DNA from: Eledone cirrhosa
Taxonomy: Eukaryota
Assembly (NCBI GenBank): GCA_964016885.1
Contig: OZ024740.1
Coordinates: forward strand, 73,284,001-73,348,000
Direction of reading: 5' to 3'
Length of the DNA stretch: 64,000 nucleotides
Below are positions 9,679 through 62,195 of the stretch, in pieces. The position numbers were made by a program, and so were the translations under genes. A model generated the notes under the pieces. It ran no database searches. It was given only the letters and a program-made list of their open reading frames with translations, and was not told the origin of the DNA. Numbering within the stretch: position 1 is the stretch's first letter; every line of letters starts with the position of its first letter.

Positions 9679-9787
9679 TTAATCATGTAATAAACAACGT
9701 CTGATCAACGTTTCTATTAGAATCGTCTAACTTCGCGAAACCTTGGGTAATGGAATAATTATATTGTGTTGTTTATTACATAATTAA
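9679..9787 (+). repeat. Short fold-back element with a decayed hammerhead core
   Basis: 20-bp inverted arms 9679-9698 / 9768-9787 enclose ctgatca...gaaaccttgggta; adjacent to (TA)n. Confidence 0.5.
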
Positions 9788-11649
9788 ATAGCTCTGTTCT
9801 ATACATAGAGCACTCTTCTTTCCTTTACCTTTTCCACGGAAATACTTAACATATATTTCATCATCATCATCATCATTTTAATGTCCGCTTTTCCCTGCTT
9901 GCAAGGGTTGGACGGGTTCTATTCAGCACAACAGCATCTCTCCACATATATATATATGTGTGTGTGTATGTATATATATATATACATATATATATAAATA
10001 CATATATATATATATATATATATATATATATATATATATATATATATATATATATGAATGAAAAATAGCGTGCTGCATTGTTGCGAACATGAATATATGA
10101 ATAAAAATAGACAAGGGTTAAAATGTCCTCTTCAGTAGTCTTCTGATTTATCGTTGATATTTCGACGCATTAAAGACTAGATACCTAAAATCAGTGCGAG
10201 CGATAACTCAATTAAGTTATCGGGACAGTGGGAAAACGGAGGGAAGAAAACACTGGCCAGCCGTAGGTGTGAGCCCCGCGAGTTGGAGTGGCTTTTCCAG
10301 CTCGTCTCCCTTGCCGTCCTCCGAGGAAACGCCTTCTCCATTCTGTCCCCCGGGGCTGTGGGTGGGCCCCATCGCATACCATTACATTAGTTAAATACCG
10401 TTAATTTGCAGCAGTGAATAACTGAAAATTATTTAAAAATCACAAACAGACCTATTATATTAATACATGGTGGTATGCAACGAAAAGAGAGGAAAAATAG
10501 AGACAAGTCAAGGAATGACGTGGGCATAAGCCCGACATATCAAATTGACGAGGAGAAATAGACACGTCCGAGCTGCGAGAAGATTGAGAGAGGAAAGAAA
10601 TTCAAGCAGGTCAGACGAGAGGAAATGAGAGGAGGAGAAGCAGAGAGGGAGTGAGTGAAAGTGAGAGGAACGACCAACCGAGAGTATATATATATATATA
10701 TATATATATATATATATATATATATATATATATATATATATATATATGTGTGTAAATGTGCGTGTGTGTGGTGTGTGTACGCGAATCTTTTTTTCCATTT
10801 TTGATCTCGTAATTCATGATGCATGTGTAGGGACGCCGCAGTGGTGGCCATTTTGAAGCCTGGCGGAGCGCATCTCCTCACTAGGTCTGAACACACCAGA
10901 TTTCTTCCGGACCGATGAAGAGTGAAGCATGGTTGAGTTGATAGGAAGTTCACTTCACAATCCTGATGTCCAGAGTTCGATCCCACTACATAGTTTATTG
11001 GGAACATGTTATTTTGTTTTTTTGCTATAGTTTCGTGTCGTCCCTAATTCTGAGTGTGAATTTAGATAGAAGAAAACTGTGTGAAAGCCCGTGGAATAGA
11101 TGCTACCTGCAATTCAAATGTTAATCCATATCACATATTATGTCACGTTGATTCTACTCAAGATTTACCTTAAGGGTACTCCTTCCTGTGGAATATACTA
11201 CCACATATACGTTAATTCAAGTGTCGGGCATTCAGTTGCTTGAACGACTAAATGCTCATCGTCGAAATCGACAGAAGACCTCTCATCACCACACGCGTTT
11301 TCACACACACACATTTACCCTCAAACACACATATGCGCACATACACACACACATACAAGCGCACACCCACATATGCGCATGCACACACCAATACACGCAC
11401 ACACACCAGTATACACACACAAACGCACACACACACATACAAGCACACACACATATACACGCACGCACACATGTAACAATACACGCACACCCAGATATTT
11501 AGCTGCTACTTGAATCCAGTCAAGTAACTACTTATAAAACTTCCTGGTTGGTTCATCAGGACCTTTTTATTCGAAGATTTTGATCATCTAATAAATTTCT
11601 CTATGTAATTTGGGGATACGGGGAAATCCCTTCTAGAGAAAAACCTCAT

Positions 11650-11960
11650 TGACAAAATTCCCACCAGACAAAATCTCCACTGGTCAAAATCCCATAAGTC
11701 CAAACCGCTAGGACAATAACCCTCTTGACAAAATCCTGTCGATAAAATCTCCACCCGATAAAAACACCATTGGACAAACCCTAAGACAAAAACCCCATTG
11801 GTCAAAACTCCTAGGACAATAACCCTATTGGACAAAACCACTTGGACAAAAACCCCTTTGCACAAAAGCCCTAGGACAAAAACCCTATTGGACAAAACCC
11901 AAAGGACAAAAAATTTATTAGACAAAACCCCTGGAACAAAACCCCATTAGACAACACCCC
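11650..11960. repeat. Minisatellite, ~20-bp unit (ggacaaaaaccccatt-like)
   Basis: About 15 degenerate copies of gacaaaa(a/t)ccc(c/t)a. Confidence 0.8.
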
Positions 11961-13859
11961 TAAAACCGTCACACCTTTCAGAGAAAAAACCCGCATAATG
12001 AAAAGATAAAACTAAATCTATTTATAGTTTTTAATAGCCAACATTATGAAATGTAATTAACCTGATGAAGAATAAACTAAAATTATATATTAAATTTCTG
12101 TATTACTGTTCACTATATGTGGGGAGAAGTACAGTAAAGCATTTTGGTTGGTGGGGTGGGGATTTTGTCATGGGGTTTTTATCCGTTGGGTTGTTTGATT
12201 TTTTTTTTTTTTTCATAATGATAACTGTAATCCACAGATATTTGGCTGCTGTTTCTAGCCGGTCGAATAACACCATATAAGCTTCCTCGTTGTTTCATTA
12301 GAGCTGGAGTATTTTAGTATTGCTAAAGTGTTTCTATTAATGTATTCAAAGCGACCTAAAACGAAATAACTTTCTCTATAAGAAGCTACGATTTCTATTA
12401 GACATTAAATACAAAAGATTTTAACTGTTGCAGAAAAACACTCCGTTTAATTTGAAGATTTCAACGATCTCCCAGGTTTGTCTTAAACAACGACACTATT
12501 TATTTTTAAGGTTATATGTTCTTTTATCAACCACAAAACATTTTGTAAGAGATGTGTATCAGAATAATCATAGAGAGTGATATTATTTTATTGGACAGTA
12601 CCTGATTCACCAGCTTTAGATGGAAAACACCACATTCAGACAGTTTTCTGGCAAGCAACGCTAATGAACCTTAACGGCAACACTGATTATGGCGTGAGAA
12701 ATATTCCTCATTAACTACAGTCTTCTTCTCTCTAACTCTCTACAGCAAAGCCGAGTGACTTTAATTTAAGGTTCGGCTACTTCCGTTGGTGCTTATCAGT
12801 TTCCGAATAACTGCCGCTATACCTTGTAATTTACACAACATGACAACCGCTATCATCCACTAAACACTGAACGCCGAACGCTGTAAAATTAGATTCTTTT
12901 TGAATTAATCTTTTTCTTCCTTTTATCCATTTAATGTCTCAACACATACGCCATACACACATCTATCAGCTATCTTCTATCTATTCACTGATGTACCTAC
13001 ATATATATATAAATACACACACACACACATATATATATATATATATATATATATATATATATATATATATATATATATATATATATATATATATATATAT
13101 ATATGTATGTATGTATATATATATGTATATATATATATATATATGTGTGTGTGTGTGTGTGTGTGTGTGTGTGTGTGTGTTTATTCATATATTTATATAT
13201 TTACATATGTGTGTGTCTGTACATAGAGATATATACAAACACGCATACATTCATACATATATACATAAGTATAATAAGTATATATGTGTATATATATATA
13301 TATATATATATATGCATACACACAAACATGTATATACATATACATGTACATATATGTATATACATATACATATATGTATATACATATAAAGATATGTATA
13401 TGTGTATACATATCTTTATCTAAAGCTATCTCCCTCTCTCTCTCTCTCTCTCTTTCTGTGTACACACACACACACACACACACACACACACACACACACA
13501 CACACACACACACACATATATATATATATATATATATATATATATATACTCTTACGCATGTTCGTATACATACTGACTAACATTCATATATGGTTAAGAC
13601 TCACTTACATATATACATTCCTCCCACCACCACCACCACCACAACACTGTATCCTTATGCTCCTACATATACTGTCGTATACCTTCATATGTTCGTACTG
13701 ATATTCATTCACATGTGTATAGAAGGCACATTTATATACATTTCTGAAAACACCTACAATTGAGTGAAAACATGAAACTATTCCAATATGTTGGAGCACT
13801 TTGATTGTAAGTGTTGGCTGAAAACTTGTTATTTCTAGTTTACAGAAATAACAGTTTTG

Positions 13860-60826: not shown

Positions 60827-61423
60827 GTCAGGTCACCAGTTGGTGCTACTGGTAACATGTATCCCAGTACAACCTGTCCCATGGTCGGGTCGTTGGCGAC
60901 TAAACTGGCAACCCCACCAAGATTTCTTGGTGAGGAGGGTGACTTTGAACATCCTGCAGGACTAAAAACAAAACCTGTCAAAGAGCAAAGGATCTCTTAA
61001 GAGTCAATGTCCATCCAAAATCACCGGGAGAGATGACCCCTTAGCCTTTGTCAAGGCAGAATTCTAGGAGAAGGAAAACTCTGATATAACACCTGCAACC
61101 CTGATGGTATCCAATGATGTTGACTTGTTCTTCTTTTCAGTAAATATCATCTTGGTTAAGAGAGTGGGACTGGCTTTGTGCAGTGCCTTTGCTCACTATA
61201 AAAGCTTCACGGCACAGGCATTGCTTTATATCTGGAGATCTCTCTGCACTTGTCGTCACATGGTACCATGGGCCCAGCACTATGTGTCAATAATTGTCAC
61301 AAGTGTAGTGTTTGTACCAGAGTTTTCAAGTCGCTGGCTGGACTAAAAAGTCACACTTCGGTAGTTGTTCTCCTACATGGATATAAAGTAGTGGCTGTAC
61401 TCGAAAACGAGTTGGCAGCCACC
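60827..61423 (+). mobile_element. Bipartite non-autonomous RTE-derived element (5'UTR joined to 3' end)
   Basis: The 5' part is homologous to 14271-14465(-) and has an RTE-UTR-like ctaggagaaggaaaactctgat motif. The 3' part encodes CSVCTRVFKSLAGLKSH, like the C-terminal C2H2 finger of RTE ORFs. No RT is present. Confidence 0.6.
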
Positions 61424-62005
61424 ATGTATATATATATATATACATACATACATGGCAGTTTACATGTCTACATATTAGAAATGTGTATATTATTAATTAT
61501 TTGTTTGACCCGAATAGCTTGGTCGCTTCTATGGCTTTGCGGTTAATGGTTTAACCATCGTCTCAGTGTGTTTTGCCTTTTAACGTATGTTGTTGCTCTA
61601 GTTCACTTGTTTCTATGGAGCGCTTGCCACACATCTCGGAAGTTGGTTTTCGCTAATTTCCAATAGTCGAAATGCGATTCTCGCTAATTTATATTTGTAT
61701 TAATCTCCAGAGTCTAGCTATTAACCAGTTAATTTTTTTGATTTTTTTAGTTAATTCTATTGACTGATTAATAGCTTATGTTAATTTTAAAAACTATTCT
61801 GTCGAGAGCTTAATTCGTTTTGTGATATTTTGCAATTTTGCAATAACCACACATTTCGCTAATTTCCAATAGCCGAAATCCGATTCTCGCTAATTTATAT
61901 TTGTATATATATATATATATATATATATATGGGGGGTGGGATGCTTAAAGCGCCCGTAAGCGGTATGCCGTTTGAGCACTCGATGCTCTTACAGAGCAGA
62001 GTATA

Positions 62006-62195
62006 ATATCACATAAGAAACGGAGAATCAGTGGCGCTACGCAGAATCGAGACATATCCGAGGATCTTGCTATTTCAGAGTCAGGTTTGATCATTGCTTC
62101 GATCGTGCCGCGAGCTGGTCGCCAGAGAAACGATTGTAATATGTCTAATAAATCTTATTCGTAGCACCACTGATTCTCCGTTTCTTATGTGATAT
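62006..62195 (+). mobile_element. 190-bp fold-back element containing a hammerhead
   Basis: 36-bp inverted arms 62006-62041 / 62160-62195 (1 mismatch); ends at (TA)n. Confidence 0.8.
62051..62145 (+). ncRNA. Type I hammerhead candidate with a CCGAGGA core variant
   Basis: gacatat-CCGAGGA-tcttgc...gccaga-GAAA-cgattg-TA-atatgtc, then AATAAA; perfect 7-bp stem I. Confidence 0.65.

Follow-up and report, generated by a model that had tools for sequence, protein, structure and literature searches.

Hammerhead motifs in a 64-kb window of the Eledone cirrhosa genome as probable remains of Penelope-like retrotransposons

The 64-kb stretch of Eledone cirrhosa DNA analysed here (contig OZ024740.1, positions 73,284,001 to 73,348,000; called the window in what follows) is high in AT and dense in microsatellites and remains of long interspersed nuclear elements (LINEs). 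A preliminary description of this DNA had pointed to ten hammerhead-shaped strings, all of which are present at their positions, and had interpreted them as solo pseudo-long terminal repeats (pLTRs) or as a separate, retrozyme-like class of short elements. We consider it very probable that the motifs are hammerhead-bearing pLTRs of Penelope-like elements (PLEs), which remained in (TA)n as short stumps, probably through target-primed reverse transcription of RNA that had not been cleaved; four of the nine families that they form are linked to the Hydra or Neptune clade, and the other five are likely to belong there too. The families themselves are new, yet as PLE ends of the Hydra and Neptune types they are of a known kind and do not constitute a new element class. 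Families are denoted by letters according to their window copies: A (62051), B (21661), C (18671), D (43683), E (44529), G (55266), H (59828), I (9698) and J (16047). Genome-wide figures refer to an assembly of 3.0 Gb in 1796 contigs, and positions within an element (+n, −n) are counted from the G of the hammerhead GAAA box.

Type I hammerheads and their repeat families

Judged by their core boxes and stems I to III, which follow in type I order, the window motifs are type I hammerheads, and they occur above chance. The comparison with dinucleotide shuffles that had been suggested for them bears this out. A strict type I descriptor gave three matches in the window (21668–21766 on the minus strand, 43687–43725 and 62058–62138 on the plus strand) and none in each of 12 local shuffles; a version allowing a U3-A8 core matched 21661, 43683 and 44529, with two matches from 20 shuffles. 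Combining both versions, four of the ten window copies pass (21661, 43683, 44529 and 62051). The expectation of ten hammerheads of this grade thus holds in part, as 24853 fails and the other copies are degraded or cut. In a genome sample of 40 evenly spaced stretches of 10 kb (400 kb), 20 descriptor matches were obtained, some of them being two arms or copies of a single insertion, as compared with 0–2 in 10 shuffles (mean 1.0) and none in reversed sequence. Anchoring by (TA)n at the 3' side, which had been proposed as well, was confirmed: (TA)4 lies within 250 nt downstream of 17 of the 20 matches against a background of 24% (p ~1e-8). Extrapolation yields about 142,000 intact cores genome-wide (84,000–224,000), or one per ~21 kb, where the preliminary description had put the window's density at roughly one per 6–7 kb. 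The window's own families account for 22 matches in the same 400 kb, part of them partial.

Dispersed repeat families account for nine of the ten motifs. The notion of a dispersed population applies to these and fails for 24853, for which a genome search returned a single candidate, the motif itself. A first look at the genome gave 932 candidates for family A, 2098 for B, 1943 for D, 361 for G, 1799 for H, 53 for E (an undercount) and 2331 for C, the latter with a query that also contained sequence of an adjacent repeat (1712 with the upstream part alone). Family I was matched in 7 and family J in 11 of 181 loci, with two and four matches, respectively, in the 40 stretches, where family C was met six times. 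The first core box is intact in 51 of 71 copies of family A, 26 of 41 of B, 26 of 44 of C, 37 of 48 of D, 91 of 95 of E, 7 of 23 of G, 13 of 17 of H and 8 of 14 of J, and the U3-A8 core is kept in 90 of 95 family E copies. Type I core boxes are found in the family form of C, G, H and J, and by eye only in that of family I. The string CAGGACT/AGTCCTG at 18671, previously read as stem I, is in fact a junction with an inverted arm; stem I of family C is GGCTTC/GAAGCC, its stem III region measures 14 nt, and the copy in the window breaks off directly after the UH site. Likewise, the AATAAA reported to follow stem I' is present in the window copies of 21661, 43683, 44529 and 62051; the other window copies lack it there, and it is no general rule. 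Folding z-scores were strong for 55266 only (−3.83) and lay between −1.84 and +0.93 in the other eight of nine folded copies. An Rfam scan of the window gave no hammerhead among the 150 of 222 matches listed, which were of a microsatellite-driven, microRNA type.

At least seven additional hammerhead sequence types were encountered in the 400-kb sample (loci L272, L274, L275, L278, L283, L284, L297, L303, L304 and L305), several of them two to four times.

Minimal hammerheads of PLE pLTRs, as described in the available part of PMC4209133, are similarly of type I, have a short palindromic stem III, occur as many families per genome and include opposite-strand pairs. According to the same source, single hammerheads from truncated PLEs are widespread and a U3-A8 variant is known in Schistosoma. 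It speaks of thousands of motifs, whereas some 140,000 are estimated here with a different descriptor, and variants with a long stem II are present in our families.

Coding parents and clade membership

The link to PLEs drawn in the preliminary description is borne out by families A, B, D and E, whose longer copies join Penelope-like open reading frames (ORFs) for reverse transcriptase (RT) and GIY-YIG endonuclease (EN). Family D forms pLTR-ORF-pLTR units with a period of 4.0–4.2 kb (L247, L249, L250). In a family A locus (L241), RT motifs are followed by a CxCX5C linker, the GIY-YIG domain, a 2-kb untranslated region (UTR) common to a second locus (L240), and the hammerhead. Four of 30 family B copies reach a GIY-YIG domain 0.9–1.3 kb upstream, with endonuclease and linker only. 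Eight of 40 family E copies extend upstream, one of them to an endonuclease; this domain as the sole query had 10,201 genome candidates, and the family E hammerhead lay downstream of it in 19 of 20 fetched loci. The most complete arrangement of this family, in L330, consists of a pLTR, an ORF1 of 409 amino acids, an open RT-EN frame of 775 amino acids and a second pLTR. RT followed by GIY-YIG within one element was seen in A, D and E, and the pLTR as a partial tandem holding the hammerhead in three D loci (L247, L249, L250) and two E loci (L330, L334). ORF1 of L330 (minus strand, 1068–2295) is of no recognised kind and overlaps the RT-EN frame.

By their motifs, families A, B and D are classed as Hydra-type and family E as Neptune-type, with the clade features of PMC8557442, a source available in part, as the reference. 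Families A, B and D carry the CxCX5C linker, lack CCHH, have CxxC and CxH around E and N, and are inserted in (TA)n; DKT and RWR were seen in family D only, the A and B copies being without the N-terminal part. The same combination, with RW(K/R), is given there for the Hydra clade of PLEs with C-terminal endonuclease, among them Hydra-1_Obim, as are a hammerhead near the 3' end, (TA)n targets and the admission of U at the cleavage position; the supplement includes Hydra elements with (TA)n targets and hammerheads, one of them from octopus. Differences exist as well: the clade's elements are mostly below 3 kb whereas family D units measure 4.0–4.2 kb and A, B and D have UTRs of 1–2 kb; a supplementary table has short stems II as opposed to regions of 60–100 nt in A, B and G; and the Hydra-1_Obim motif by eye equals none of the hammerheads in the window. 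The parent of family E shows GxKF, DKG, a CX4CxxC linker, CxxC inside GIY-YIG, CCHH (its second His is kept in L331 and altered in the other copies shown) and a C-terminal endonuclease. GxKF, DKG, the linker, CxxC, an overlapping upstream ORF1 and microsatellite targets are also features of the Neptune clade in PMC8557442, from which family E differs in its U3-A8 core and in shedding many solo pLTRs with a single 5' limit.

Short and long copies are intermixed on trees (12 label changes against 18.5 in shuffled labels for family A, where some clustering is expected from the use of two queries; 8 against 7.5 for family E). An initial assignment of A, B and D to Neptune was replaced in view of the published clade features, and the interpretation of family E as an independent short interspersed nuclear element (SINE) was ruled out by its long copies and coding parent. 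A short-only subfamily of E hinted at by the tree was dropped, as a random sample held a long copy with the same allele. The idea that the 55266 hammerhead is the upstream pLTR of an ORF at 55749–58200 was abandoned too: the family G copy does not extend past about 55490, and it is separated from the ORF by a different repeat and by an inverted ORF arm.

Fixed ends, fold-backs and a possible insertion mechanism

The copies end at preferred positions. Five families have two fixed 3' ends each, followed in either case by (TA)n: +68 and +144 in A, +71 and +207 in B, +59 and +193 in D, +89 and +151 in E, and about +36 to +40 and +106 in C. The segment between the two ends, 62–136 nt long and called the tail here, corresponds to the start or 5' UTR of the next unit; in family E the ORF1 ATG lies 27 nt past site 2. 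(TA)n at both insertion ends masks any target-site duplication, and where the continuation can be read, the start sites match the target over a short TA stretch.

Fold-backs with an inverted copy of the 3' end, which had been noted in the window, recur at other loci, in keeping with the inverted 5'-truncated copy and optional tail that characterise EN+ PLEs. The 308 loci contained 62 head-to-head pairs, one of them counted twice, which leaves 61. The tail is present on exactly one arm in 59 of these, on neither in two and on both in none (p ~8e-16 against a 50:50 draw); clean pairs of a site 1 and a site 2 arm number 42, and fold centres often overlap by 1–3 nt. The locus pool for this count, and for those of the family C 5' limit, of neighbours and of parent ORFs, also includes loci from the non-family-A flank of L028.

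Preferred limits at the 5' side occur in three families. In family E, 31 of 32 short copies begin at about −64 to −67, and the eight long copies carry TATAAAA 26 nt upstream of this limit and CCAAT boxes further up. Among family C arms, mostly met incidentally, 39 of 44 begin at −27 or later and five are long, with none between −28 and −71; the TATA string TATAAATA begins at −55. Family A copies begin at −104 to −99 in 17 of 30 cases and slightly later in eight, five being long, and none begins between −105 and −161. Because of this common 5' limit in three families, two of which have a TATA box 26–28 nt ahead of it, the short copies are likely to be reverse transcripts of the RNA's 5' end, and the fixed ends as a whole likely record where the element RNA starts and where RT begins copying. 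The solo-pLTR character that had been suggested is supported; an example is the family E solo pLTR in the window, which starts at the fixed 5' limit.

Upstream of the family E hammerhead, four loci (L265, L268, L290, L329) contain a promoter-like block with CCAAT boxes and a TATA box. The block also has E2F-like and E-box-like strings, which would suggest cell-cycle or germline control.

Parts of this anatomy have been described. The available text of PMC3846280 reports inverted pLTRs, a tail on one of two pLTRs, TATA and Inr motifs in pLTRs, and solo pLTRs, and the same insertion anatomy appears in the parts of PMC8557442 and PMC8969392 that were at hand. Two fixed 3' ends, the one-arm tail and shared 5' limits go beyond the published descriptions that we found; no report of a one-tail count, or of solo pLTRs tied to a transcription start, was found in the searched literature, outside which lie many subscription and older PLE papers. 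PLE transcripts begin in the upstream pLTR according to accessible portions of PMC2377424 and PMC6765202. For Poseidon of Anolis, the available part of PMC11167929 describes cutting of both strands at AT-rich DNA, extension of both, RT starts at two internal RNA sites bounding the tail, and use of uncleaved RNA, all of which resembles what the copies suggest here. By comparison with the PLE insertions in PMC3846280 and PMC11167929, tails in our families measure 62–136 nt rather than 30–40 nt and are situated in the 5' UTR instead of the ORF, and the one-tail pattern holds almost strictly (59 of 61), as opposed to the lack of a strand difference in start site observed in vitro (PMC11167929).

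We propose that a promoter within the pLTR would start the RNA just upstream of the hammerhead, that the element endonuclease would cut (TA)n, and that RT would begin inside the RNA, past the hammerhead, with a choice of two sites. A tandem transcript would hold these start sites twice. A start in the downstream pLTR would give a long or randomly truncated copy, and one in the upstream pLTR would allow only the first 60–250 nt of the RNA to be copied, and the result would be a solo pLTR whose 5' end is fixed. If both target ends prime, each would take a different site, and the two complementary DNAs would be joined head to head, often over 1–3 common bases, to yield a one-tail fold-back. Stumps starting behind the TATA box would lack the promoter, and we expect them to be dead on arrival. 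The hammerhead would be carried along: the copies run through its cleavage site, and their templates were therefore uncleaved. Cleaved RNA as the main template was considered because 6 of 22 family E fold-backs have an arm end at +12, close to the cut after +9; a 3-nt match explains this, and families A and C show no excess. It is an evenly balanced question whether the stumps are, in this full sense, a genome-wide footprint of the PLE reaction, with most solo pLTRs being transcripts of RNA 5' ends, paired RT active sites locked on two start sites, one per strand, and family C possibly an ORF-less parasite made of promoter, hammerhead and tail.

Several observations weigh against our interpretation of the motifs as PLE stumps and of their ends as RNA and RT starts. 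Clade labels for A, B, D and E rest on motif comparison with the partly available PMC8557442. The copy samples of these four families are the best matches to the window copy and not a random draw. Pfam left the Hydra-type ORF pieces unrecognised, including the family D RT piece, which is RT-like by its Atlas features and matches 33 unnamed homologues. The search for a parent ORF was without result for family C in 28 long copies with 1.5-kb flanks and six with about 8 kb, and likewise for G, H, I and J in the loci examined. Of the two fold-backs without a tail on either arm (L202, L045), the latter is truncated at the locus edge; some arms were classed from alignments that ended early, 11 short of site 1 and 7 inside the tail; and among eight long family E fold-backs six have one tail, one is without a tail (L327) and one is uninformative. 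The 5' ends of families B and D are scattered, and upstream of the family A limit a TATA box is not present. Near that limit there are only strings that, read after the fact, resemble an initiator (Inr) and a downstream promoter element (DPE). Transcription starts are putative, inferred from motifs and copy ends only.

The alternatives differ in how much they would change. That DNA so rich in AT and in repeats yields such motifs by chance is barely conceivable: the lack of a second copy of 24853, for which this may hold, and the unremarkable folding energies would fit, and the excess over shuffles and (TA)4 enrichment in the 400-kb sample together with cores kept within families, such as U3-A8 in E, refute it for the other nine. 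An origin as animal non-LTR retrozymes, in which tandem monomers self-cleave, circularise and reinsert from circular RNA, is highly improbable. Type I hammerheads, a palindromic stem III, a length of 150–400 nt and low GC agree with the available part of PMC7229834, a preprint seen in part (10.64898/2026.07.22.740005) derives retrozymes from pLTRs, and both sources describe short, non-coding elements akin to pLTRs; one 522-bp tandem dimer of another family was met in the random sample. Yet no tandem monomer arrays were seen, same-strand neighbours within 1.2 kb are rare (one pair among 71 copies of A, none among 41 of B and 48 of D, two among 95 of E, none among 23 of G and 17 of H), and copy ends, set by RT starts and a 5' limit rather than by cleavage, differ from the cleavage site and are not permuted. 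Coding parents, moreover, largely refute this origin for A, B, D and E. The earlier proposal of a separate or retrozyme-like class is therefore not supported, as four of nine families are 3' ends of coding PLEs of described clades, short and long copies intermix, and no arrays were seen. The dimer (L279, 6300–7300), two head-to-tail units with a hammerhead each and then (TA)n, is the sole retrozyme-like arrangement seen.

A less radical possibility, to which we give limited credence, is that some families, chiefly C, are non-autonomous, non-coding units of about 400 nt composed of promoter, hammerhead and tail, which would be transcribed and mobilised in trans by PLE enzymes. Family C is abundant in the genome sample, its long copies have some 300 nt upstream in common, up to a (TG)n tract, with no ORF in the 28 and 6 loci, short copies of family A would retain an internal Inr/DPE-type promoter if that reading is right, and trans-mobilisation via pLTRs is reported in the part of PMC3846280 available. 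Family E, however, looked alike until further copies revealed a coding Neptune-type element, the UTRs of 1–2 kb in coding families are split by microsatellites, which would hide a parent, and short copies of A and E form no clade of their own. Rather unlikely, too, is the view that stalling of the RT at a particular site, joining by microhomology, or recombination or deletion at a later time produced the solo pLTRs and the fixed 5' limits. Solo pLTRs are ascribed to recombination or deletion in PMC3846280, as far as that text was available, a GC hairpin is located 13–30 nt upstream of the family A limit, and overlaps of 1–3 nt are frequent at fold centres. By contrast, the flanks of short copies are unrelated, and their 5' junction is formed immediately by (TA)n or by an inverted arm; the limit is unchanged whatever the partner arm; and in E and C a TATA box, preceded by CCAAT boxes, lies 26–28 nt ahead of it.

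Further features of the window and implications

Element parts and hammerheads of the window are compiled in the table.

Table. Hammerhead-bearing copies and related parts in the window
Feature	Position	Strand	Remarks
Family A inverted arm	61936..62034	-	3' end plus tail up to about second 3' end
Family A direct arm, Hydra-type pLTR	62036..62194	+	stops at first 3' end, then (TA)n
Family A hammerhead	62050-62146	+	stem I 8 bp, stem II region 62 nt
Family B stump, Hydra-type pLTR	21612..21781	-	stops near first 3' end, then (TA)n
Family B hammerhead	21661-21773	-	stem II region 80 nt, GUU site
Family B stump, 56-nt piece of 5' part triplicated	21737-21909		
Family D stump, Hydra-type pLTR	43587..43772	+	first 3' end, then (TA)n
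Family D hammerhead	43683-43729	+	CCGAUGA core
Family E solo pLTR, Neptune-type	44391..44608	-	from the family's fixed 5' limit to second 3' end, then (TA)n
Family E hammerhead	44529-44566	-	U3-A8
Family C inverted arm	18583..18677	-	tail reaches second 3' end
Family C direct arm	18678..18721	+	hammerhead core, interrupted past UH site by a different repeat; no parent ORF found
Family G stump	55223..55493	+	~80% identity to other copies; tail has internal deletion; parent ORF not found
Family G hammerhead	55266-55390	+	first box mutated, stem II long
Family H fold-back	59580..60109	.	parent ORF not found
Family H minus arm	~59698-60002	-	degraded hammerhead 59828-59872
Family H plus arm	60003-60109	+	stops at distal 3' end before (TA)n
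Family H extra mirror copy	59580-59697		
Family J remnant	15997..16130	+	minimal hammerhead 16047-16074, stems decayed in window copy
Family I remnant	9690..9850	+	9698-9753 with mutated first box, after (TA)n
Hammerhead-like string, not supported as element	24853..24908	+	no second copy found, no descriptor match, without (TA)n anchor

At 21737–22001, the 5' part of the family B stump is repeated around a short palindrome, three times directly (56 nt each) and once inverted; the palindrome recurs in other loci, and the arrangement looks like a later rearrangement. A decayed Hydra-type PLE ORF with DKT, CxCX5C and GIY-YIG lies at about 55749–58200 on the plus strand, with no shown tie to the adjacent G and H hammerheads; around it are an inverted N-terminal arm (55604–55748) and a SINE-like insertion (56469–56799). 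Between the G stump and this arm, at 55492–55600, a low-copy repeat with a hammerhead-like second box has three other genome matches, near which no ORF was seen. Outside the window, pieces of a PLE-like ORF of a different type precede a family A copy in L243 (1362–3590 as oriented), with a close relative in L288.

Among other repeats, the window holds three LINEs with APE endonuclease and RT on the minus strand (979–6177, with Pfam support, 28148–30726 and 35492–38466), which we take to be likely of the L1/Tx1 type; a 3' piece of an APE-type LINE is duplicated at 6401–7196. Three more LINEs, presumably of the R4/Dong type, combine RT with a C-terminal restriction-like endonuclease motif (8320–9483 and 40076–43371 on the minus strand, 31705–35130 on the plus strand), and two of them end near (TAA)n. 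A near-perfect hairpin with a (TA)n loop at 53240–53319 is built of a short repeat that is also present at 55165–55213.

For annotation, our results mean that the short islands are best listed with the PLEs to which they belong, and that entries as new SINEs or as structured RNAs of the host should be avoided. With roughly 140,000 intact cores, among them forms with a long stem II and forms with a U3-A8 core, the genome is a large natural library of PLE ribozymes. Beyond the description of further families, what the analysis adds is a set of end rules that can be tested, and family C, for which the search for a parent was without result. For the formation of PLE pLTRs, tails and inverted copies, the one-tail pattern and the 5' limits provide sharp and cheap predictions, namely capped 5' ends at named positions and, for each target strand, a single start site; natural uninterrupted RT-EN frames for such tests are available in family E.

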